Assembly: GCA_005400705.1 (NCBI GenBank)
Contig: GCA_005400705.1_4079.1
DNA length: 64,000 nt
Source: Escherichia coli
GTDB taxonomy: Bacteria > Pseudomonadota > Gammaproteobacteria > Enterobacterales > Enterobacteriaceae
Strand: one strand, 5' to 3'
Each line of letters begins with the position of its first letter. Position 1 is the first letter of the stretch. The translations under genes and the position numbers were made by a program. The notes under the pieces were generated by a model. It had not been told where the DNA came from. It saw nothing but the letters and a program-made list of their open reading frames with translations, and searched no databases. Below, piece by piece: positions 7,107 to 64,000 of the stretch.

Positions 7107-8987
7107 ATGAAACCTATCCGAGTACTATCTCTTTTTAATGGAATGAGTGTAGGATACATGGCATTAAAAGATGCTGGTATCCCTGTTGAAAAATATTATT
7201 CATCCGAAATTGACAAATTTGCTATAGCTGAATCCCAAGCTAACTTCCCCGATATAATCCAATTGGGTGATGTAACTAGATGGAGAGAATGGGATATTGA
7301 ATGGGATAAGATAGATCTACTGATGGGTGGTTTTCCATGCTTCCCAGCAGGAACTATGATAATGACAAATAAAGGTCATAAAGATATAAAAGATATAAAA
7401 ATTGGTGATATGGTTCTTACACACACTGGACAGTACCAAAAAGTATTGAGTACTGGTGTTAAAAAGGCTCCCACTCGTATTATTACAGGTCAAGGTCACC
7501 TTCCAATTGAGTGTACCGATAATCATCCATTTTGGAGTAGGGAACGTCTAGCCAATAAATGGAATAATCAACGCCGAAGATATGATTCTGTGTTTTCTGA
7601 ACCGCAATGGGTAAATGCTATAGATCTTACTAAACAAAGTTATATTTGTAATGTTAAAAATATTACACATAATACAGTAAGTGATAAAGATGAAAAATAT
7701 TGGTATTTTGTTGGTCGTTTTATGGGTGATGGATGTGCTAGTGTATCTAATAACAAATACAGTATTACTATTGTAGATTCATTAGATAAAGTTGATGAAT
7801 TGAAAAAATGTTTTGATGATTTTGGATACAAATACACATTAGCTATTAAAGATAATCATGTAAGATGTGATATATATAGCAAAAAGCTTTATGATGAATT
7901 AATATGTATTGGGCATAAATCACAAAACAAATGTTTACCACCTGAAATATTCAATGAAACTATCAATAACAAAGAAGCATTTATTAAAGGATACATGGAT
8001 GCAGATGGTTGTGAGGATAAACACAATAAAAAATACAAATTTACCACCACAAGTTATAAAATAGTTCTTGGTATGCAACAGTTAATCTTAGATACTTATC
8101 AACGTCATTGTACTATTAGTCAAACTGTTCCAAAAACAAAAAAATATATAAAAAATAAGTTGGTTAATCAGCTTCCGTATTGGAATGTTCATTTTAGCTA
8201 TAATAAAATTAAAAGAGATGATGTAATATATGATGAAATTTATATATGGAATCGTGGTGTAAAAAGTAATGTACCAACCGGAGAATGGAAAACCGTTTAC
8301 AATATTGAAGTTGCAGTAGATAACACATATACGGCGAACAATATTGTAGTTCATAACTGCCAAGCGTGGTCAGTTGCAGGTAAACAGGGTGGAATAAATG
8401 ATCCTCGTGGTATGTTATTCCATACAATGGTTGATATTTACCAGCACATAAAAAGTCTCAATCCAGACTTGAAAGTACTGTTCGAGAATGTTAAAATGAA
8501 AGAAGATTTCAAGCAATACATTAATAGTGTTCTTGAGATGACACCAGTACTGATAAATTCCCAGCATTATACGCCTCACTTCAGGCAGAGATATTACTGG
8601 TACAGTACTGATAAACTTTTTATACCACCTGCATTATCAAATGCACCTAAACTTCAAGATATTATTGAAGATGGTTGGTACACTGACAGAACCGCTTCGT
8701 ACTGTATAGATGCTAACTATTTTAAGGGTGGTGATTGTAACCAGTACTTTAATAAATCAAGAAGACAAATTGTTTTCAAAGAACCTGATATCGATAGGGA
8801 TTTCCTTATTGAACATGGTAAGCGAAATGTGGACTATCGTCATTTAACAGTACAAGAGTGTTGCATGTTGCAAGGAATTGATGTAAACTACTTCAAAGTT
8901 AGTAGTTCAACACAAGCATACAAAATGCTTGGGAATGGATGGACTATGCCAGTTATATCACACTTACTACGAGATATATTCTTTTGA
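7107..8987 (+). CDS. DNA (cytosine-5)-methyltransferase, intein-containing precursor
   Basis: C5-MTase motif I FNGMSVG, split motif IV GGFP / CQAWSVAG, motif VI ENV (VLFENVKM); a 340 aa insertion lies between them. Confidence 0.8.
   Translation: MKPIRVLSLFNGMSVGYMALKDAGIPVEKYYSSEIDKFAIAESQANFPDIIQLGDVTRWREWDIEWDKIDLLMGGFPCFPAGTMIMTNKGHKDIKDIKIGDMVLTHTGQYQKVLSTGVKKAPTRIITGQGHLPIECTDNHPFWSRERLANKWNNQRRRYDSVFSEPQWVNAIDLTKQSYICNVKNITHNTVSDKDEKYWYFVGRFMGDGCASVSNNKYSITIVDSLDKVDELKKCFDDFGYKYTLAIKDNHVRCDIYSKKLYDELICIGHKSQNKCLPPEIFNETINNKEAFIKGYMDADGCEDKHNKKYKFTTTSYKIVLGMQQLILDTYQRHCTISQTVPKTKKYIKNKLVNQLPYWNVHFSYNKIKRDDVIYDEIYIWNRGVKSNVPTGEWKTVYNIEVAVDNTYTANNIVVHNCQAWSVAGKQGGINDPRGMLFHTMVDIYQHIKSLNPDLKVLFENVKMKEDFKQYINSVLEMTPVLINSQHYTPHFRQRYYWYSTDKLFIPPALSNAPKLQDIIEDGWYTDRTASYCIDANYFKGGDCNQYFNKSRRQIVFKEPDIDRDFLIEHGKRNVDYRHLTVQECCMLQGIDVNYFKVSSSTQAYKMLGNGWTMPVISHLLRDIFF
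7338..8357 (+). other. intein with LAGLIDADG homing-endonuclease domain, inside the methyltransferase gene
   Basis: Begins with Cys (CFPAGT...), ends ...VVHN followed by Cys; two LAGLIDADG-type motifs (YFVGRFMGDGCAS, FIKGYMDADGCED); the +1 residue is the PCQ catalytic Cys. Confidence 0.75.
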
Positions 8988-28793: not shown

Positions 28794-29948
28794 TTATGCG
28801 TTGTAACCAACTATTACGACTGAGCAGTCAAGCGGTTCTACTACTTTAAGAATTACATTATCATCTTCATCCACTTGTATTTCACTATGAACTACATGAT
28901 TGTCTGAAGAATATAATTGAACTTGTGGTAGTGCTTTACCATGTTCAGTTACTGGAACTGAGATAGAGTACATAGAGTCTTCACTGAGAACCCACTCACT
29001 TAAAGTATATTCTTTATGGAAAGGAGTAGTATGCAGTGTTTTTCCGATTATACTCAAAGAAACAGGTAAATTATCAGTTTGATACACAGTAATATTACCT
29101 TCTGCGTCTACAGAAAGATCTACACCAACTTGATATAAGTCACCACTGTATGCTTGAAGTGCTAAGTACTGTCCACGATCATGAACATCAAATGGAACAA
29201 CCGCAGAAAATACACCTTCCGAAACAGGTTCAAATTGGGATAGAAGAACTGATGTAACAAAATCAATATCCTCACCACTTTCAAGAACATCAAATTCCAC
29301 CACTTTAGTGTTATAATATGGAGAAGTGAGCGTAGCAGTACCTTTCCCTGATTGTGTGATAACATCAACTGGAATTGTAAATGCATCATTAACAAATTGG
29401 GTAGTAAAGTATTCTGTCCCGTCTGGTAATACGATTGTTATTACCATACCGTTAGTATCAATTTCTGAACCAGTGTTGAATAATTTACCACTAATTGAGT
29501 CATTACCAACAAATACTGGTGAAATGAGAATATTATCTATATCACGATCTATAATACCACATTCAGGTGTATACATATGATACAAGGTTTGTGAACTACC
29601 TAAAATTGTTTTATGTAGCATAAATTTATATACAAATCCAGTATCAGTTTCTTGTGGCTCTTCAGAATATCCACGAACAAAGAAACAATTTTTATTAATT
29701 TCACTTAATAGTTGGTCATTAGTTTTATTGTAATTTAATAGATAACCTTTATTATCTTTAGTTGTTATTTGTACTTTACGATATATTATATTAGTTCTTG
29801 GATCAATTAAATCATATAATCTATGGCTTCTTTGGCGATAGATTCTAATATTTTTTAGTCTAGTTCCATCGTTGAGGATTGCACCATCAACAACATAACC
29901 ACATTCACCAAACTTATAGTGTCCAGCCGCAGCAATTGACCTTGACAT
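28794..29948 (-). CDS. large hypothetical protein (384 aa), possibly structural or host-interaction
   Basis: Only long minus-strand ORF in the middle of the plus-strand block; preceded on the minus strand by GGAGGGATAA-ATG. Confidence 0.6.
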   Translation of the reverse strand: MSRSIAAAGHYKFGECGYVVDGAILNDGTRLKNIRIYRQRSHRLYDLIDPRTNIIYRKVQITTKDNKGYLLNYNKTNDQLLSEINKNCFFVRGYSEEPQETDTGFVYKFMLHKTILGSSQTLYHMYTPECGIIDRDIDNILISPVFVGNDSISGKLFNTGSEIDTNGMVITIVLPDGTEYFTTQFVNDAFTIPVDVITQSGKGTATLTSPYYNTKVVEFDVLESGEDIDFVTSVLLSQFEPVSEGVFSAVVPFDVHDRGQYLALQAYSGDLYQVGVDLSVDAEGNITVYQTDNLPVSLSIIGKTLHTTPFHKEYTLSEWVLSEDSMYSISVPVTEHGKALPQVQLYSSDNHVVHSEIQVDEDDNVILKVVEPLDCSVVIVGYNA

Positions 29949-34744: not shown

Positions 34745-35710
34745 GTGAAAAAGCTTGATTTAAATACAATTGCCGAAGAAGTTCTGGATGAATGTTTTGC
34801 TAATGAAGAAGTCAACACACTAGAAGCCTTAGATTTCGTTGAAGATAAAGATGAAAATGAAGGTAAAGTACAAAGCAGTTTCAAATATAATATTACACTT
34901 AAGCGACCACCAAATGTTTCCAATGAAGATCTAATTCGTGATATTCAAGCTGGTATCAATGTAAAGAAAAACACTGAACTGTTAGTTCGTTACAATTATG
35001 GACTGATTATTGATGTAGCAAGTAAATGTACTTGTTATATCCCATTTGAAGATAAGATTTCATATGGTGTTGAGGGGTTCATGAGAGCACTAAAAACCTT
35101 TGATCTTAATAAGAATGTGAAGTTCATTACCTATGCTTCTTCTAGTATTTACATGACAGTTTATAACGAAAGTTCTGACGCTAACTATATGGTACACTTC
35201 CCACGTTATATGAGTGTTCATAAGATCAAAGTAAAAAGATTCTGCCAGGAATATATGCGTAAACATGGTGTTCGCCCAACTCCTGAAATAATCTCAGAGG
35301 GTACTGGGATTGAGATTCAGCATGTTAATAATTGTTTGTTATTTCAAAGCGAATACACTTCACTGGATGCACCATTAGACGGTGTTACAGATGGTACACT
35401 AGGTGACATTATTCATTCACCTGCTTCTGATTTTAACCTCAATGTTGATAGTATTCGTGCACCTTTACGTTATGCTATCAATGAACTGACTAACGAATTG
35501 AGTACTAAAGAACGTGAGATTATCCAGCGTGTTCATGGTCTAGGTGAATATGAACCTGAAACGCTTCGTGAGATTGCTGATAATGGTTTTGTTGATGATA
35601 ATGGAAAATATGTTAAATCCCGTTCATCAATACACCGAAAGTACAGTGAAGCTATGCAAAAGCTTAAGAAGCTAGTACTTGCAAAAGGGTACGAATACGA
35701 AGATTTCTAA
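34745..35710 (+). CDS. sigma70-family RNA polymerase sigma factor
   Basis: GTG start after AGGAG; region 2 (EGFMRALKTFDLNKNVKFITYASSSIYMTV) and region 4 helix-turn-helix (LSTKEREIIQRVHGL...ETLREIAD...KSRSSIHRKYSEAMQKLKK). Confidence 0.75.
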   Translation: MKKLDLNTIAEEVLDECFANEEVNTLEALDFVEDKDENEGKVQSSFKYNITLKRPPNVSNEDLIRDIQAGINVKKNTELLVRYNYGLIIDVASKCTCYIPFEDKISYGVEGFMRALKTFDLNKNVKFITYASSSIYMTVYNESSDANYMVHFPRYMSVHKIKVKRFCQEYMRKHGVRPTPEIISEGTGIEIQHVNNCLLFQSEYTSLDAPLDGVTDGTLGDIIHSPASDFNLNVDSIRAPLRYAINELTNELSTKEREIIQRVHGLGEYEPETLREIADNGFVDDNGKYVKSRSSIHRKYSEAMQKLKKLVLAKGYEYEDF

Positions 35711-55853: not shown

Positions 55854-56192
55854 ATGCTTGAGTTTTTTAATTCAGATACAATGCTTAGTATTACTTTGAT
55901 TTATCTGTTTGGTTTTTTCTTTTATCATGCACTAGTTGTAGTACTATGGTATTTTAAAAAGAAAATCGTTTTCAAACTGTATCCTGATGGAAACATTTCA
56001 CTACTTCTTTTCACTATTATCCAAGGTATGTTTGCAATTGTTGGTCTTATCGCACACTTAATTTATTGTGCTAATCCACAGTTGAACTCAATATCACAAT
56101 ATATTGTATTCCTTGGATTACTAATTTGGGTGCTGATATACTTGTTTAATCTCATCATTAATGGAAGAGCAAAAATTCGTGGGGACTTCTAA
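55854..56192 (+). CDS. small multi-TM protein, array B member 1
   Basis: 112 aa, 3-4 TM segments, YFKKKIVFKLYPDGNI after TM1. Confidence 0.55.
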   Translation: MLEFFNSDTMLSITLIYLFGFFFYHALVVVLWYFKKKIVFKLYPDGNISLLLFTIIQGMFAIVGLIAHLIYCANPQLNSISQYIVFLGLLIWVLIYLFNLIINGRAKIRGDF

Positions 56193-56539
56193 TGTTTGAA
56201 TCTTATCTTGAGTTTTTAAAGAGTAGTTCTGTTGCACATTCAATTGCAGGGATTATTCTAACAGGTTATGTAACATTTTGGGTAGTTATGTTTCTAGGAT
56301 GGTATTTTAAACGACAATTCTATAAGCGTAATGGTGAAGATTTTATGAATTCTTTCATTAATCAATCGTTGTTTGCATCAACATTGATAGCATGTATTGT
56401 AGCAACACTCACAGGAAAGGTACTGCCAGCATTCTCCGCAGTTTACGGTACATTGGGTATGATATGTGTAGTTTTTTACTTGACCATTAAAATTTGTTGT
56501 GTTATGATTGAACTTCGAAATAAGATACCGGAGGAATGA
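56192..56539 (+). CDS. small multi-TM protein, array B member 2
   Basis: YFKRQFYKRNGEDF after TM1; C-terminal ELRNKIPEE. Confidence 0.55.
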   Translation: MFESYLEFLKSSSVAHSIAGIILTGYVTFWVVMFLGWYFKRQFYKRNGEDFMNSFINQSLFASTLIACIVATLTGKVLPAFSAVYGTLGMICVVFYLTIKICCVMIELRNKIPEE

Positions 56540-56874
56540 TGGAGTACTTTATTGATTTACTGCCGTGGTATATGAAAGTTAGTACTTTGTACTATATTAT
56601 TAGTGCTGGATTCTACTTTCTGATGTGGTTCTTTAAACGACCAATTTCAGTATTCATCGCTGATAACATGCTGCAATTAAAATTACACGCATGGTTTGGT
56701 ATGGCGATGATTATGCCTATTATTCACTACTCAATGATTAGTAGAGGTTTCCGTTCTAATGGTGAACCAATTGTATTAGTATTCTATTGGGGTTCAACTA
56801 TTGCATATGTAAGTTTGTTGTTGTTCCCAGTCGTTCATAAGTTACGTGCTAAAATTCCTGATGCGAGGTACTAA
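56536..56874 (+). CDS. small multi-TM protein, array B member 3
   Basis: FFKRPISVF after TM1; C-terminal KLRAKIPDARY. Confidence 0.55.
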   Translation: MMEYFIDLLPWYMKVSTLYYIISAGFYFLMWFFKRPISVFIADNMLQLKLHAWFGMAMIMPIIHYSMISRGFRSNGEPIVLVFYWGSTIAYVSLLLFPVVHKLRAKIPDARY

Positions 56875-57188
56875 TGGATATAGTAACATTGATTTACACG
56901 TTGTATTCATTCTATTTCATTATGTGTTGGGTTGGATTTTTATTTGTACTCAAGATGTTTGATTATGTTGAAAAACAGATAAAAGAATTTTGTATTCCTT
57001 TTATCGGTTCAACCATTATTAGTGTTTCTTGTGTGTATTTTTTGGTTTTTGATCCACCAGATAACACTGCAATGATTGACTTGATGTTACTACCAACAAC
57101 TGTTACTTTTTTATGTAGTCTGATGCCGCCGATTAGCCGTGGACTAACAGAATTTAGACGCAATCAAAAGCGTAAACGAGGGATGTAA
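56874..57188 (+). CDS. small multi-TM protein, array B member 4
   Basis: Hydrophobic, basic C-terminus RRNQKRKRGM. Confidence 0.5.
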   Translation: MDIVTLIYTLYSFYFIMCWVGFLFVLKMFDYVEKQIKEFCIPFIGSTIISVSCVYFLVFDPPDNTAMIDLMLLPTTVTFLCSLMPPISRGLTEFRRNQKRKRGM

Positions 57189-57556
57189 TGGAAATTGCTC
57201 TTATTATCTTAACTGCTATGCTGTTTATTAGTACTGTGGTTATAATTGGTAAATTCTTTTGTGTATCATTTTTAGAAACGGTATACGATGAAATTGCTGA
57301 TGATTATGAATTACAAGCCGGATTTTTCATTACGTATTGGCTTAGTTTATTTTGTCTAGTCATTGCTTGGATTTTACATATCTTTAAATGGGGTATGGTA
57401 GACGGTGATCCTATTATGGCAATTATTGTTCTAGTGTTTGGTATCCTTGGTGGTGCAGTGCATAATCTAATGGTTATCTGGCAAACTGTTCAATATGTTT
57501 TGGTTCCCTATTTCGAAAAGATGCACAGTACAATTAAAAAACGTAAACGAGGTTAG
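57188..57556 (+). CDS. small multi-TM protein, array B member 5
   Basis: Hydrophobic, basic C-terminus KKRKRG. Confidence 0.5.
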   Translation: MEIALIILTAMLFISTVVIIGKFFCVSFLETVYDEIADDYELQAGFFITYWLSLFCLVIAWILHIFKWGMVDGDPIMAIIVLVFGILGGAVHNLMVIWQTVQYVLVPYFEKMHSTIKKRKRG

Positions 57557-57557
57557 T

Positions 57558-57920
57558 ATGAACGGGATAGAATTATCTTTCGTTGGTCAATTACTAGTAA
57601 TGGCGTATACATTTATCTTCTCACTGAATGCATTCGTGTGCATTGGGAAGTACTTCCATAAGCGACCATTATCAAATATATATGATGTAATCCAAAAGAG
57701 ATATAGTCCAGCATATACTGTGTTGGGTACAGTATTCAATTTTGGTTTTATTGTATTAATAATTGGACTGTTCACATCCTCTTTGAATACAATAACCTTC
57801 GGTCTTATGATATGTTCATTGGTATTAGCCGTAATTATATGTTGTTTAGTACTACACCTTGTGATACTATTATATATAAAGATCTCTGAAATCCACCAAC
57901 GTTTGGGTATGAGGAAATAA
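57558..57920 (+). CDS. small multi-TM protein, array B member 6
   Basis: ATG after GAGG (track ORF 57495-57920); YFHKRPLSNIYD after TM1. Confidence 0.5.
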   Translation: MNGIELSFVGQLLVMAYTFIFSLNAFVCIGKYFHKRPLSNIYDVIQKRYSPAYTVLGTVFNFGFIVLIIGLFTSSLNTITFGLMICSLVLAVIICCLVLHLVILLYIKISEIHQRLGMRK

Positions 57921-57921
57921 T

Positions 57922-58293
57922 ATGAGTTACCGTGAGATATTTTCCATTATTTCAATTATTATGTTCAGTACTGGAACACTGGTATGGTTATTATATTTCT
58001 TCTGTATTAATCCAGTGTATAATATGTTATGTAATATTAAATCAAGTGCCGGATATATCACTTTTATGGTCTTTATGGGATATTATTGTCTAAGCATTTT
58101 AGGTGTTGTTTTGGTTGTTATATTTGATGTGGGGCCAAATAGTGATGGTATGGAAATACATGAATTAATAACCATGTTTGGATGTATGATACCAACAGCA
58201 CTACTGTTTGTAGCTACTGGTAGTGGATTGATAAAATTATATAATTATTTAAAATCCATTCATAATTCCATTCATAATAAGCGTATGTCATAA
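57922..58293 (+). CDS. small multi-TM protein, array B member 7
   Basis: SD GAGGAAA; hydrophobic, C-terminal basic tail. Confidence 0.5.
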   Translation: MSYREIFSIISIIMFSTGTLVWLLYFFCINPVYNMLCNIKSSAGYITFMVFMGYYCLSILGVVLVVIFDVGPNSDGMEIHELITMFGCMIPTALLFVATGSGLIKLYNYLKSIHNSIHNKRMS

Positions 58294-58335
58294 TAAAAAA
58301 TCCAGTACTATTAAGTACTGGATGTATAAGGAGTT

Positions 58336-58998
58336 ATGATGAAATCAAAATTAGGTTTGTTTTATAAAAACTATTTTGTTAAACAACGTAAATTTATAAA
58401 AAAATATTTCTCTGGTGAGAAGTCTAGTCCTATAATTTTTAAAAGACCAAGTTATAATACTTACTTAGCTTGTGCTAAACAGTCTAAGAAATTTATTACT
58501 CTTTTAAATAAAAACAAAATTAAAGCTTCTTATGTTGAAACGAGAAGAAACTCATCAATAACTCCTGGTGATTTTATTGAGTACGGATGTTTCAATATTA
58601 AGTATAATGATAATACATACTTTATGGATATTGATTGTAATACATCCAATCTTTTTAACATTGTAGTAAATCCATTAAAACAATATAATGTTTATGGTGA
58701 TTCTATTATCAAATTAATCAAAAACAAAGATGGCTTTGATTTTGAAATAAATGTTTTAGATGATAATTTTGACGAAGTACCCGTAAACCCTGAAATCTGT
58801 GATATTTTAAACAGTTTAAAAGGTAGTACCTACAATATATCATCTGATTTAATGTTTCAGTACTCATTAATCCATAAAGATATTGAAAAGTATATTGAAT
58901 GCTCCAGAATTTTGAATTTTCTCTATGATGAATTTAAAAAGAGTTCTAAAATAACTGCATACACTTTGTACAATATTCCTAAAATGGTGAATCTTTAA
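58336..58998 (+). CDS. hypothetical protein, divergent member of EExFFQxS family
   Basis: SD AAGGAG; motif variant SSDLMFQYSLIHKDIEKYIE; last plus-strand gene before the minus-strand block. Confidence 0.5.
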   Translation: MMKSKLGLFYKNYFVKQRKFIKKYFSGEKSSPIIFKRPSYNTYLACAKQSKKFITLLNKNKIKASYVETRRNSSITPGDFIEYGCFNIKYNDNTYFMDIDCNTSNLFNIVVNPLKQYNVYGDSIIKLIKNKDGFDFEINVLDDNFDEVPVNPEICDILNSLKGSTYNISSDLMFQYSLIHKDIEKYIECSRILNFLYDEFKKSSKITAYTLYNIPKMVNL

Positions 58999-59402
58999 CA
59001 AATACAGTACTGGCAACTCCACCGTCTGTAATATATTGTCCAGTACTGTAAATTTGTATACCATCGGTTAAGTAAGTTCTGTATAAAGTTGCTGTAACAT
59101 ATACGTTATTCATATTCATCTCTATTGGTAGTACACATTTGGTATAGGCCGACACATCTGTTTGTGTACCTATACCCAATTGACCTGCGTTATCGCCTGT
59201 GTTATTACCAGTTGCGTAAACACCCAATGAAGTTATAATATGATTAGAAAAATATGAATAACCCAAACTCTTGAGATTCTCTACTGTACAACGTACCATC
59301 TGACATAAGGGCAAAAACTGTTGTATCAGATGAAGCTATTTTTGTTACAGAAGGTTGTATGTTCTGTTTTGATGATGTGATAATTCTTCGAAAGGGTAGC
59401 AT
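58979..59402 (-). pseudogene. frameshifted, internally deleted copy of the RCC1-like repeat gene family
   Basis: Minus-strand ATG at 59402 after GGAGGA gives MLPFRRIIT... which stops after about 52 codons; the +1 frame continues as track ORF 58979-59314 whose C-terminus (AGQLGIGTQTDV...YRTYLTD...YSTGQ) matches the C-termini of the full-length paralogs. Confidence 0.45.
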
Positions 59403-59494
59403 TGTATCCTCCAAATGTAAATCATTATTATATTTAGGACAAAAAAATGCCAGTACAAGGCACTGGCATAAAATCTAAGCAGAAGGCATATCCT

Positions 59495-59605
59495 TCATCT
59501 TAATAAATGAAAATTGTGTACCAGTATTTGTGGTTCCAATTTCTTTATTTCAGGAAGAGTTGGTTTAATATTTCCGTACTTGACCATTCTTGCAAAAGGT
59601 AACAT
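59495..59605 (-). pseudogene. N-terminal fragment (36 codons) of an RCC1-like repeat gene paralog
   Basis: GGAGGGAATT-ATG then MLPFARMVKYGNIKPTLPEI... ending at a stop; carries the family promoter/SD context. Confidence 0.4.
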
Positions 59606-59678
59606 AATTCCCTCCTTTTATTTGTTATACTATATTTAATACAAATAAGAAAGCCAGTATCAAGTACTGGCTTTTACA

Positions 59679-60869
59679 TTACAATTGTCTAGGTGTATCC
59701 AGTACATATCTATTTGTACGAGGACCACCATCATCATCAGTTCCGGTTGAATATATATTTTTCATATCAGCAGTTAGGAAAGTACGATACGAACCGCGAT
59801 ATATTTTTATTTTATCATACATAGAATATGTTATTTCTGACGGCAATGGACATGCAGTAAATTTACCAATGGTAACATCAGAACCAACACCCAATGTGCC
59901 AGCATAACTACTCGCATTTAAACCAGTTGCATATACACCTGCACTCGTAACTAGTATACTAGATTGTGTTGGGTATCCAGTATGAATTGAATACAAAGTA
60001 CCGGGTGGTAAGGTTGTACTATTGTTTCCTAAAACTCCATTAACAGTGCTAGATGTAGTTTTATTTCCCCATGCTCCATTATTAGCTAATCCACCAACTA
60101 GAAACTGACGTGCTCCTGTATTTGGATTCTCCACTAAAGCACTGACTGAACCCATTGAGCATACAGTGTATTGTAACGTTTTTGTGTATGTTGTACTTGG
60201 CTGATATAAAGTATATTCATTATATAAAGTCCATGTAGTGCTGGAACTTATACCGGATGTACCACCACCAATATATAAATTATTTTGTGTATCAAAAAAC
60301 ATTGCACAGCTATTTGTTGACATTATTTGTGCAATATCAACATCTGGTGTTACAGCTTTAACAAATGAACCATCGGTTATTTGTTGAGTTTTTCCAGTAC
60401 CATCAGCGAATTGTTTAGCCCCACTCCAACCAGTACTCCATATTGTATTATTATCCATTAAGAAAGTAAACCACGTAGTACCTGCATACATCTGTTTAAT
60501 TGAAGTACTTGAACTTTGTGTGAACAAATTTTCAATATATTGGTTATAACTTAAAAATGATGTAGTACTAGTTTCTAAACCAATATGACTACCATATCCA
60601 CAATAAAAATAATTTAAGTCATTATCTTGTACTAACAAAGTTCCTTCTGACATCCAACAATCGTTAACGTTTTCTCTAATTAATGTCCATGTTCTTAATG
60701 CAGTGTTGTTTCCTCTCCCAAACTTCCCAAAACTATTATTGCCTCGTGCGTATAGTTGACCATCAGTATAAAGTACAACAACATCACTATTGATTGGTAT
60801 TATTTTCTTAATTTGAAGAGGCTCAGGTGTAATATTTCCATAATCAAACATTCTAACAAAAGGTAACAT
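59679..60869 (-). CDS. RCC1-like repeat protein with conserved MLPFVRMFDYGNI N-terminus
   Basis: Start set to the ATG after AAGGAGGAAAT (track ORF extends 22 codons further into the upstream repeat); repeated G-x-N-x-x-G-x-x-G motifs (YARGNNSFGKFGRGN, YATGLNASSYAGTLGVG). Confidence 0.6.
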   Translation of the reverse strand: MLPFVRMFDYGNITPEPLQIKKIIPINSDVVVLYTDGQLYARGNNSFGKFGRGNNTALRTWTLIRENVNDCWMSEGTLLVQDNDLNYFYCGYGSHIGLETSTTSFLSYNQYIENLFTQSSSTSIKQMYAGTTWFTFLMDNNTIWSTGWSGAKQFADGTGKTQQITDGSFVKAVTPDVDIAQIMSTNSCAMFFDTQNNLYIGGGTSGISSSTTWTLYNEYTLYQPSTTYTKTLQYTVCSMGSVSALVENPNTGARQFLVGGLANNGAWGNKTTSSTVNGVLGNNSTTLPPGTLYSIHTGYPTQSSILVTSAGVYATGLNASSYAGTLGVGSDVTIGKFTACPLPSEITYSMYDKIKIYRGSYRTFLTADMKNIYSTGTDDDGGPRTNRYVLDTPRQL

Positions 60870-60939
60870 ATTTCCTCCTTTATTCATTATACTATATTTA
60901 ATACAAAAAGAAATGCCAGTATCAAGTACTGGCATAATA

Positions 60940-62118
60940 TTATCGGTTAAATTTAAAATCTGTTATGTGTGTCCATGTATGATTTAATGGTGTACTCATT
61001 GGTGTAAAGCCAGCAGGGTCTGACAAAGCTGTACCACGTGCGTACATAAATTGATTGCCAGTACAATCCATTATAGCATAAGAACGTGTTGCTGTGCCAC
61101 ATTTGAACCCAACTGCACTACTTGGGGTCGGTAATACTTCAAATGTAGGTGCATTTGAACTACCACCCCCATCTTTTGTTCCAGCTATGTACAGAACTCC
61201 ATTAGTATCAATGATTAAGTTAGTCCAATATGCTTGTTCTCGACCAGCATAAAAATATGTTAAATCACCGGGTACAAATGGTAACGTTCCTTTATATATT
61301 GTGGTATTAACATTCACTGGTGCACCAGCTACACCCCATGAACTCATATAGTTTCTCCCACTTGCGTAGAATGTAGTTCCTTTACCGTAAAGTATTAATG
61401 TTGCTTGACTTGTTCGCATTGCATTATATTCAAACTCAGGATCATCAGTAGCGTCCTTAAAAATCTGTGTCCATGTTGTTATATTGCCAGTAGTTGTAAC
61501 ACCCATTTGATAATAATAATTATCACCAGTAGCATAGAATTCTTTAGGGCCAGTTTGTACAATTGCATTCCCATTAGTTAACCAAAAATCTAATGTATTA
61601 GTCTTGATCTTGGTTGGTGTGTAATTCGCCACGGTATTTCCTTTTCCGAAATAACCATTAGCGTTATTTCCATGACCCCATAAATCACCATTAGTTGTGC
61701 GTAGGAATAATGTACCAGTATTGAATCCAACTTTTTCTATAGTACTTATGTCAATACCAACAGCAGTGTACTTCGTTGTAAAATCTTGAAAAGTACTCCA
61801 ATAATTTGATGAACCATTAAACATGGTTTGTCTGCCAGTGTACTTCACTTTATTATCGTTAGTGATAAGTAATGTCCCCCACACTGACGCGAACATTAAC
61901 TTAACATTTTCCATAACAAAGTATGGCTTACCGTATGCTGACGCGGTAGTGTTTAAACCTAATAGTTGTCCATCATTACTACAACCCCATACTTCGCCGT
62001 TATCCAAAAGCATCAACATAGTAGGTTTGCCAGATGATACATCCAAAAAGAAATCTTTTGGTGTTGGTACACCAGGTGTGATATTCCCATAATCAAACAA
62101 TCTTACAAAAGGTAACAT
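60940..62118 (-). CDS. RCC1-like repeat protein with conserved MLPFVRLFDYGNI N-terminus
   Basis: AAGGAGGGAAAT-ATG; motifs WGHGNNANGYFGKGN, YATGDNYYYQMGV. Confidence 0.6.
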   Translation of the reverse strand: MLPFVRLFDYGNITPGVPTPKDFFLDVSSGKPTMLMLLDNGEVWGCSNDGQLLGLNTTASAYGKPYFVMENVKLMFASVWGTLLITNDNKVKYTGRQTMFNGSSNYWSTFQDFTTKYTAVGIDISTIEKVGFNTGTLFLRTTNGDLWGHGNNANGYFGKGNTVANYTPTKIKTNTLDFWLTNGNAIVQTGPKEFYATGDNYYYQMGVTTTGNITTWTQIFKDATDDPEFEYNAMRTSQATLILYGKGTTFYASGRNYMSSWGVAGAPVNVNTTIYKGTLPFVPGDLTYFYAGREQAYWTNLIIDTNGVLYIAGTKDGGGSSNAPTFEVLPTPSSAVGFKCGTATRSYAIMDCTGNQFMYARGTALSDPAGFTPMSTPLNHTWTHITDFKFNR

Positions 62119-62189
62119 ATTTCCCTCCTTTATTCATTATACTATATTTAATACAAATAAGAATGCCAGTATCAAGTACTGGCATTATG

Positions 62190-63299
62190 TTATTTTGGTA
62201 AATCAATTTTAGTAAAGACTGCAACATCTTCACTTGCTCCTGGTATTGCGTAATAAGAACCAGTACTATACACATCTCCATTTTTGGTTAATATCGATGT
62301 CAAACCATCACTAAAAAGAACATCCCTAATCTCACTAACTTCAACTGGTAATTGTAAATTGGTAGCACTATATATAGCACCAGTTTGAGAATTGTTTAAT
62401 CCCAAACCACGGTTCGCCCCAACACCCTTCTGATATGTACTAGTAATTACCATTTGTGTAGCAGTATTTAAGGCAGGTGAATTCGTCATAAACAACGGAG
62501 AACTATTAGGCAAAGTACTTACAGGAACGGCACGGAATGTAGTCGTACCTGAACTAAGAAAGTTTGGAGTTTGACCACATACGAAATATGATGTACCATT
62601 ATAGTAATTGAATGCATTACCACCAATGGCTGCATCGATTACACCAGAACTACGCAATCCCCAAGTGTTAATTTGTGTTTGGTTCCCCGTACCATGCTGT
62701 CCACTACTATTCCATCCAGAACTATATAGCTTATTATCTAATGTAAGATACATACTATCATTCGCATTGGTCATTACTTTACGAACGTTCGTAGCACATT
62801 GAGTTAATGTGTAAATTGATGAGGAACCAATACCCAAAGAACCACGATATCCATTATCTCCTGCACCATAGAGTACTGAATTAGTGCTAAGTACAAATAT
62901 TAAACCATTTGTACATACAATATTAGCAATTTCACTTACTGGTATAGCATTGGTAAACCAATTAGTCCTTTCAACTAATACAGTACTGTAAGAAGTAGTT
63001 GTAGAAGATGAGAACCAGTACGTTTGACCTGATGTCCATATCGTATTATCATTTTTAATAATAACAAGTGTACGATCACCCACGAAAAAATTAGAAACAT
63101 CTGTACTTACTAATATCCATGAAGATACCGTGTTGGTATTACCATTTCCAGATTCACCACCTTGATTTCTACCTATGTAATATAAATCATGTGAATCAGT
63201 CAATAAGAATTGACCTTGTGTAGAAGCACCAACTTTAATTATATTTTTAGGACCAGGTACAATATTTCCGTACTTAACCATTCTTGCAAAAGGTAACAT
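62190..63299 (-). CDS. RCC1-like repeat protein with conserved MLPFARMVKYGNI N-terminus
   Basis: AAGGAGAGAATT-ATG; motifs YYIGRNQGGESGNGN, YGAGDNGYRGSLGIG, YSSGWNSSGQHGTGN. Confidence 0.6.
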   Translation of the reverse strand: MLPFARMVKYGNIVPGPKNIIKVGASTQGQFLLTDSHDLYYIGRNQGGESGNGNTNTVSSWILVSTDVSNFFVGDRTLVIIKNDNTIWTSGQTYWFSSSTTTSYSTVLVERTNWFTNAIPVSEIANIVCTNGLIFVLSTNSVLYGAGDNGYRGSLGIGSSSIYTLTQCATNVRKVMTNANDSMYLTLDNKLYSSGWNSSGQHGTGNQTQINTWGLRSSGVIDAAIGGNAFNYYNGTSYFVCGQTPNFLSSGTTTFRAVPVSTLPNSSPLFMTNSPALNTATQMVITSTYQKGVGANRGLGLNNSQTGAIYSATNLQLPVEVSEIRDVLFSDGLTSILTKNGDVYSTGSYYAIPGASEDVAVFTKIDLPK

Positions 63300-63309
63300 A
63301 ATTCTCTCC

Positions 63310-64000
63310 TTAATTTAATAATGCCCCTGGCAAATCCACTTTGACGAATTGTGCATATGCTGAGGAATTTTGATCAAAGTTTGGTCCCAATCCATAAAAT
63401 GAGCTAATGCCGTCTTCATTTGTGTATATGATATAAACGTTCTTTACATCATTTCCGCATATAAATCGAATGTCTTTCGTTTGTGTTCCCGCTGGAACAT
63501 TACGAAGGTTCACAACGCCATTACTTGCATTGTTATCAGCCGACGCAATTGGTAATTGATTTTGACCATATTGACCACGCATATTTTTTGCATCTAAACC
63601 AAACACAGTATTTGATACCGCACCAACTTTCAAAAATGAACCAAAACTATTATTGAATGACTTTGGAAATGTACCACTATAAACACTTCTCCCATCTGAT
63701 AATACCGCTGAACTGAATTTCCCGTTATTCGATATGGCAAATTCATTGTAAGGAAGTGTACCCATTTTGGTATATACAGAATATGAATTAGTGGAAGTAT
63801 TATCAATAATCTTATTACCATTATATCCAATACCATACTGGTATCCGTCTGCATCTTGAACTATACACAAAGGACCACTTGGGGTTTGTGTCAACGAAAC
63901 AACACGTTCAACTTGTATATCACCAAATGTATTTCTTCGCCATGTTCTATCTATTATAGTACTAGTATTACCCAAAGATAATTCCACACTATATAATAGA
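63310..64000 (-). CDS. repeat protein, 5' end beyond the window (partial); probable further paralog
   Basis: Open minus-strand frame runs to the window edge with no upstream stop; contains YGIGYNGNKIIDN and GLGPNFDQNS. Confidence 0.5.
   Translation of the reverse strand, partial: LLYSVELSLGNTSTIIDRTWRRNTFGDIQVERVVSLTQTPSGPLCIVQDADGYQYGIGYNGNKIIDNTSTNSYSVYTKMGTLPYNEFAISNNGKFSSAVLSDGRSVYSGTFPKSFNNSFGSFLKVGAVSNTVFGLDAKNMRGQYGQNQLPIASADNNASNGVVNLRNVPAGTQTKDIRFICGNDVKNVYIIYTNEDGISSFYGLGPNFDQNSSAYAQFVKVDLPGALLN

Follow-up and report, generated by a model that had tools for sequence, protein, structure and literature searches.

The stretch of DNA analysed here, 64,000 nucleotides (nt) from an Escherichia coli assembly (GCA_005400705.1, contig GCA_005400705.1_4079.1; hereafter the window), ends in a minus-strand tandem array of genes for RCC1-like proteins (58979-64000), comprising three intact genes, a fourth that runs off the window edge and two remnants left by deletions. 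By megablast, the window matches jumbo coliphages of the Asteriusvirus group (121Q, PBECO4, phAPEC6, BF17 and others), and what it contains of a much longer array is the downstream end alone. The genes share a 12-residue N-terminal tag (M-L/I-P-F-x-R-M/I/L-x-x-Y-G-N), and we consider the chances about even that this is a portable virion-incorporation tag on swappable lectin-like modules, which are shuffled at the joints between gene cassettes.

Each gene has three parts: the tag, a linker (I-A-P-x-P) and a globular domain of a binding type. Under this explanation, a single common acceptor in the particle would recognise the tag as a signal for docking or incorporation into the virion, and a changing set of lectin-like modules would in this way be loaded onto virions, with display on the outside, as accessory adhesins or decorations, as the favoured location. 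Whole gene cassettes would be inserted, deleted, reordered or 5'-converted by homologous recombination at the conserved joints (the terminator hairpin, the promoter-like motif TAAATATAGTATAAT, the ribosome-binding site (RBS) and the tag codons), while each cassette body is held under purifying selection.

The N-terminal tag

Every array gene in the window and in six Asteriusvirus arrays (those of BF17, WPEC3, phAPEC6, 121Q, SHEFM2K and Turkey3, with 12-16 tandem genes at the same locus) starts with M-L-P-F-x-R-M/L/I-x-x-Y/F-G-N, and the form M-[LI]-P-F-x-R-x-x-x-Y-G-N starts approximately 100 genes across the Rak2-like jumbo phages. The paralogues share only about 25-30% identity in their bodies, in contrast to the near-invariant tag. 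With a 22-residue tag query, 61 phage records were found throughout the Rak2-like group, each genome having 1-16 sites; one lineage of Logan contigs has just one tagged RCC1-like gene, and a scan of IMG/VR with the tag's DNA pattern matched only two contigs.

Within the window, the three intact genes (59679-60869, 60940-62118 and 62190-63299) and a 36-codon stub begin MLPF[VA]R[ML][FV][DK]YGNI. An earlier note, made from the sequence alone, had described these three genes and their common start, which the open reading frames (ORFs) bear out, and a fourth gene starting in the same way. The fourth gene (63310-64000) does run off the window, but its N-terminus lies outside it; a tag is expected there from the 98.7% identical genes of BF17 and WPEC3, which encode 376 amino acids (aa) and start MLPFVRMFDYGN. 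The note's suggestion that selection acts on the N-terminus at the protein level also holds. The distant Salmonella phage Munch keeps the tag as MIPF[AT]RILxYGN but uses other codons for it (CCA/CCG, AGG, ATA), which shows that the protein is what is constrained. Behind the tag, the short proline-containing linker has proline as residue 15 in 69 of 99 proteins and as residue 17 in 49.

The tag is found on at least five types of body. The first gene of the BF17 array is a tagged Kelch propeller (92.7 bits against a cutoff of 50). Another tagged member, of 245 aa (the 121Q_243 type), is glycine-rich and related to PF21722 families, and its homologues in other phages begin with MLEML instead of the tag. 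This glycine-rich protein had no match in a sequence search of the PDB, and its best PDB match in a fold search was a fibre of cyanophage Pam3, a weak hit (probability 0.95, template-modelling (TM) score 0.28). At the corresponding locus of Pectobacterium phage CBB (L014 2637-7905), seven genes are tagged: three Kelch proteins, two Laminin_G_3/ConA-like lectins and two members of an unknown 223-aa family common to Serratia phage BF and GAP32. The tag is, as we show here, portable between folds and not part of the fold. As in the window, the CBB locus adjoins genes for small membrane proteins.

In many propellers, an N-terminal strand closes the ring, and the conserved N-terminus might be such a structural 'velcro' strand. 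We find this scarcely credible and rejected it: in the AlphaFold model of the protein encoded at 62190-63299, residues 1-13 are unstructured (predicted local distance difference test (pLDDT) <50) and lie outside the propeller, whose first strand begins at residue 20, and the same peptide heads folds that are not propellers.

The tag comes in two main flavours, VR[ML]FDYGN and ARMVKYGN, which differ at codons 5, 8 and 9 and include a D/K charge reversal (flavour-defining codons lie, for example, at 63273-63287 and 62092-62106 of the window). BF17-like genomes mix the two; 121Q, phAPEC6 and SHEFM2K lack the FD type and have mostly K-type tags. Flavour is independent of orthology, as the gene of orthogroup C (62190-63299 in the window) has ARMVK in the window and VRLFD in BF17, which argues that the 5' joint is exchanged independently of the body. 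The two flavours could correspond to two acceptor sites or to two conversion tracts.

Virion proteomics, which the earlier note had named as a check, is available in published form. Electrospray ionisation tandem mass spectrometry (ESI-MS/MS) of phAPEC6 virions detected gp003, 005, 006, 007, 009 and 010, all of them members of the array. The RCC1-like GAP32 gp001 was detected in virions, as were CBB_551 and CBB_552, a lectin-like and a Kelch protein, both tagged. The annotation of CBB treats five of its seven array genes as structural. According to the CBB paper, this phage has no homologue of the RCC1-like GAP32 gp001; its structural proteins of Kelch, lectin-like and unknown folds nevertheless start with the same MLPF tag and are thereby linked to the Asteriusvirus array. 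CBB is also a whiskered ('hairy') phage. The idea that such whiskers are RCC1-like proteins is at most weakened by CBB, which has whiskers and no RCC1-like homologue but does have tagged Kelch and lectin proteins. We found no functional study of the array proteins, and no data on their part in adsorption or host range, in the literature searched (RCC1 with tail fibre or propeller in phages, and papers on Asteriusvirus).

Folds of the array proteins

The earlier note had read the bodies as RCC1-like propellers from their repeats, and profile matches and structure prediction support this for the genes in the window. Pfam RCC1 or RCC1_2 scored above the gathering threshold in all three complete genes (23.7>22, 28.1>21.7 and 32.8>22), which also match PHROG 4219 (E 1e-47 to 1e-110); the whole-domain model WD40_RLD stayed below its cutoff (61-69 bits vs 150). 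For the edge-cut gene, the full-length orthologue matches RCC1_2 and PHROG 4219, and the window fragment alone matches no Pfam or PHROG family. A family profile run against PDB sequences found the RCC1-like domain of HERC1 and UVR8 (E 5e-37 (~1e-37)). A profile search of 1.84 billion representatives with HMMER gave 3343 matches at E<1e-30, dominated by generic multi-RCC1 proteins and hence uninformative on close relatives.

The AlphaFold2 model of the 62190-63299 protein (pLDDT 89.5, predicted TM score 0.87, about 27 strands) is, together with the Foldseek matches, that of a seven-bladed propeller. Its TM scores were 0.78-0.79 to UVR8, 0.73 to HERC1 RLD3 and 0.52-0.57 to RCC1 itself. The best matches among viral models were paralogues from GAP32, Yersinia and Erwinia phages and PBECO4, and these matches also include the C-terminal parts of annotated Pseudomonas phage tail-fibre proteins (e.g. 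Littlefix and PollyC). The modelled protein has neither the shaft nor the trimerisation domain of a fibre or spike, and consists of a compact single propeller after an N-terminal segment of about 19 residues.

In the relatives, the array genes are annotated as 'regulator of chromosome condensation', 'putative DNA condensation protein' and even 'HERC1', and the authors of the phAPEC6 study speculated on DNA or inner-body roles. That the proteins condense DNA or belong to an inner body, as these annotations and that study would have it, seems to us very improbable. The label derives from eukaryotic RCC1, a Ran exchange factor, and the nearest structures are UVR8 and the RCC1-like domains of HERC proteins. 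The window proteins lack the basic DNA- or chromatin-binding character of RCC1 proper, with an isoelectric point (pI) of 5.5-6.7, only 5-7% K+R and 44-47% N+S+T+G+Y. Their abundance in the proteome is low, and related phages use Kelch or lectin bodies instead. Since the proteins are neutral to acidic, the 'DNA condensation' label is probably a misnomer.

Cassette joints, gene shuffling and selection

The array consists of the following features, listed from the window edge inwards:

63310-64000, minus strand: 3' 229 codons of an orthogroup H RCC1-like gene, running off the window edge, N-terminal tag not visible
63300-63309, minus strand: coupled junction of 10 nt, RBS only, no hairpin/promoter cassette
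62190-63299, minus strand: orthogroup C RCC1-like propeller gene, 369 aa, tag codons 63264-63299
62119-62189, minus strand: intergenic cassette, with hairpin 62165-62183, T-rich tail, TAAATATAGTATAAT at 62136-62150, then GGAGG RBS
60940-62118, minus strand: orthogroup M RCC1-like gene, 392 aa, tag codons 62083-62118
60870-60939, minus strand: intergenic cassette, with hairpin 60915-60933, promoter-like motif 60886-60900 and RBS
59679-60869, minus strand: orthogroup D RCC1-like gene, 396 aa, tag codons 60834-60869
59606-59678, minus strand: intergenic cassette, with hairpin 59653-59671, -10 altered to TATAAC, indel in the RBS region
59495-59605, minus strand: 36-codon stub of an L-type gene, equal to phAPEC6 gp010 minus 1038 bp internally, with two blastn segments flanking the deletion
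59415-59494, minus strand: degenerate cassette, with hairpin 59447-59469, T-run, TAAATATAATAATGA and GGAGG
58979-59414, minus strand: frameshifted remnant of the terminal array gene (121Q_235+234), internal deletion of about 715 bp
58300-58323, no strand assigned: orphan hairpin between two plus-strand genes, at the site of an extra tagged RCC1-like gene in relatives

Three near-identical cassettes of hairpin, promoter-like motif and RBS thus lie between array genes. The earlier note had given every gene its own promoter and terminator; the other junctions do carry a cassette of this type, one of them degenerate, but gene 62190-63299 follows its upstream neighbour by 10 nt with no cassette. 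The two decayed copies that the note described are accounted for by the deletions listed above. Over the stretch compared, the terminal remnant does not differ from that of phAPEC6, and its C-terminal ORF matches PHROG 4219 (E 1.7e-19). An extension of the orthogroup D reading frame to 60935 is spurious, as it passes through the hairpin and the promoter.

The hairpin GCCAGTACTTGATACTGGC has three exact copies in the window (0.03 expected by chance), and the promoter/RBS string TATAGTATAATGAATAAAGGAGG has two (0.00 expected), plus one with an indel and one degenerate. Terminator scanning placed hairpin-plus-T-run sites exactly at the cassettes. In relatives, the cassette motif is absent from 39 of 97 tagged gene starts, many of them lying 8-15 nt after the previous gene, and present at the other 58, where the gene is led by a hairpin, then a T-run, TAAATATA[N]TATAAT and an RBS. 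Most spacings in the arrays are either about 70-78 nt or 8-15 nt. Folding energies, for 55 distinct cassettes, are mostly -10 to -20 kcal/mol, and in Munch the stem sequences of the hairpins differ while the pairing is kept. The promoter-like motif is exclusive to this gene family: it occurs 59 times in the 332 kb scanned, and all 59 occurrences are directly upstream of a tagged gene.

The cassette has a perfect TATAAT -10 but no recognisable sigma-70 -35 (the scan's best was CTGGCA, 9/12). We rejected a sigma-70 promoter on the lack of a -35 and on the scan as a whole, which gave 36 hits where 34.3 were expected by chance. T4-type late promoters (TATAAATA) are carried by the capsid, scaffold and baseplate genes of phAPEC6; this canonical form does not precede the array genes, and the cassette has only the TAAATA core in common with it. 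The window also encodes a sigma-70-family factor with regions 2, 3 and 4 (34745-35710, plus strand), separate from the gp55-like late sigma annotated in phAPEC6, and this factor is a candidate reader of the array-specific TAAATATAGTATAAT motif.

Array order and content vary among close relatives. The closest known genes are those of the annotated Asteriusvirus arrays (121Q_234-248, phAPEC6 gp001-010 and PBECO4) and GAP32 gp001. The Asteriusvirus arrays have the same locus and strand arrangement as the window, and three of its four genes are 86-99.5% identical to Asteriusvirus array genes: the orthogroup C gene is 99.5% identical to 121Q_246, the orthogroup D gene 86-89% identical to orthologues in four of the compared arrays, and the orthogroup H gene as given above. 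The fourth, of orthogroup M, is missing from four of the six relatives compared (121Q, phAPEC6, BF17 and WPEC3); its identity is 96.7% in Turkey3 and SHEFM2K and 39.6% in Munch. Gene order and content differ in every genome compared, despite flank identity of about 95%. The window order (H-C-M-D-stub-remnant) is matched by none of the six arrays; BF17, for example, has ...K-H-C-F-D-I-A... and SHEFM2K has A-M-E-C-G-B-D... Of the phage records, none spans 80% or more of the array region (the best reaches 43%), whereas the adjacent 5.1 kb is at least 80% covered in 14 records, those listed being about 90-96% identical, and on this basis the array is hypervariable. Comparison of the locus among relatives, which the earlier note had also proposed, thus finds copy number (12-16 genes), order and content all varying.

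The same note had called the genes a diversifying cassette family. The differences in order and content agree with this, but we found no diversifying selection: the ratio of nonsynonymous to synonymous substitution rates (dN/dS) among orthologues is 0.06-0.36 for the three complete genes (0.24-0.29 for the orthogroup D gene against five orthologues), and gene-wide positive selection is rejected for all three. The ratio of 0.86 for the partial fourth gene comes from only four substitutions and is uninformative. These low ratios show that each cassette is kept by purifying selection. The source of the diversity is old divergence between paralogues, together with gain, loss and shuffling.

The surroundings of the array also have some features of their own. 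At the position of the orphan hairpin, an extra tagged RCC1-like gene is present in BF17 and WPEC3, and by annotation in CRJP21; with a tagged gene at this site in relatives, the plus-strand gene at 58336-58998 (PHROG 34359) is embedded in the array. Adjoining the array, also on the opposite strand, are seven back-to-back ORFs of 104-141 aa (55854-58293, plus strand), of which the four translations inspected are hydrophobic and have basic C-termini; at the same relative position, CBB has genes annotated 'membrane protein'. Just beyond the upstream end of the array, relatives have another tandem array on the opposite strand, made up of about 20 tiny genes of some 60 aa (L002 19361-23763, L007 8122-12718 and L004 21050-24886), some of them in PHROG 11711. 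Further away in the window, the only other large minus-strand ORF (28794-29948, 384 aa) has no Pfam match and no MLPF tag, and a 626-aa C-5 cytosine DNA methylase (7107-8987, plus strand) is interrupted by an intein with Hint and LAGLIDADG domains.

Proposed virion loading, competing readings and known systems

We infer the tag's role as an incorporation signal, its acceptor, the location of the proteins at the particle surface and their binding of ligands from the patterns described above. External display is favoured because the folds of the bodies are lectin- or adhesin-like, because RCC1-like domains cap tail fibres elsewhere, and because the glycine-rich member has a weak likeness to the Pam3 fibre. 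A place at the surface and a part in receptor binding would thus be read from the fold types only.

Several points weigh against virion loading through the tag. The array proteins of phAPEC6 were detected with only 1-4 peptides each, in a list that also has RecA-like and single-stranded DNA-binding (SSB) proteins, making contamination possible. The tag codons are nearly uniform within Asteriusvirus, and homogenisation at the nucleotide level may lie behind part of the tag's conservation. The predicted bodies are compact monomeric propellers, not fibres. The promoter in the cassette is not the canonical late one (TATAAATA), so late expression of the array is at most a possibility. Finally, incorporation through the tag, and the place of the proteins in the particle, are what we infer and not what the mass spectra record.

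The low peptide counts beside clearly non-structural proteins, the near-uniform codons and the non-canonical promoter would equally suit intracellular, non-structural binders that manipulate the host, with the 5' conservation due to gene conversion and constraint on translation initiation, and the mass spectrometry signal due to carry-over. This would leave it unexplained that the tag residues are kept with different codons in Munch, and kept across genera, that the tag has been grafted onto a family with another N-terminus elsewhere (the 121Q_243 type), and that tagged or array proteins of several folds have been detected independently in the virions of three phages. We therefore think such a role improbable, and less likely than targeting to the capsid.

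Mass spectrometry gives association with the virion, not location, and the tag might instead be a capsid-targeting sequence like that of the T4 internal proteins. The proteins would be routed into the prohead core and ejected with the DNA, and the propellers would bind or neutralise host factors, such as defence proteins. The T4 internal-protein locus follows the same logic, with unrelated proteins, a short common N-terminal targeting peptide and a hypervariable location (PMC3012670), and these phages have a T4-like prohead core protease and scaffold, as well as an inner body. Capsid targeting nevertheless appears unlikely to us. No conserved T4-type [LI]xE site follows the tag (21 of 99 proteins have one within the first 40 residues, at scattered positions), and a cleavable targeting peptide of the T4 type is rejected on these grounds. 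At 25-45 kDa, near-neutral (pI 5.5-6.7) and rich in N/S/T/G/Y, the proteins are unlike small basic internal proteins, and their folds (ConA-like lectin, Kelch, RCC1-like and fibre-like glycine-rich) are typical of external binding modules.

The explanation that we favour, a portable tag loading lectin-like modules onto the virion, may be taken further. Perhaps MLPFxRMxxYGN is a general virion-loading tag of Rak2-like jumbo phages for any domain behind it (RCC1-like, Kelch, ConA-like lectin or glycine-rich), docking to a common acceptor, with the promoter-terminator-tag joints as recombination sites that swap at least 12 surface binding modules as a 'plug-and-play' adhesin repertoire. This wider version is tentative, and we would sooner bet against it than on it.

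The gene family and its multiplicity are already known, as several RCC1-like genes in these phages were noted earlier (PMC7247149, PMC5259590). In the literature searched, we came across no account of a tag common to all members, of the same tag on other folds, of a promoter-terminator cassette exclusive to the family or of shuffling at the level of cassettes. Three known systems come close. The array resembles the T4 internal-protein locus in having a short N-terminal peptide common to otherwise unrelated proteins at a hypervariable locus, but differs in the sequence of the tag, the lack of a conserved protease site and the large, neutral, lectin-like bodies. PeSL cassettes, in which a stem-loop terminator, a promoter and an RBS lie between variable genes of a hyperplastic region subject to insertions, deletions and replacements (PMC2839356), are similar in their stem-loop terminators (in the array, a predicted hairpin plus T-run), in their hyperplastic location and in gene gain, loss and replacement. 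Unlike PeSLs, the array cassette has no sigma-70 consensus -35/-10 pair, its conserved unit reaches into the first 12 codons, and its motif belongs to one tagged gene family in all DNA scanned. Receptor-binding proteins and tail fibres have the same layout of a conserved N-terminal anchor and a variable distal domain, although the anchor of the array proteins is only about 12 residues long and is followed by no fibre shaft or trimerisation domain.

In a 350-kb genome the arrays account for about 5% of the length, and they rank among the most variable stretches of coliphages that are otherwise near-identical and are candidates for therapy. If the tag is a virion-loading signal, a role would be assigned to 10-16 genes per phage, and their products would be candidates for some of the unassigned decorations seen by cryo-electron microscopy on phAPEC6 and 121Q. 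With its 12 residues, the tag would also be a minimal handle for the display of foreign proteins on jumbo phages. The array would then be a second, independent instance of a hypervariable phage locus organised by a short targeting peptide, the first being that of the T4 internal proteins.

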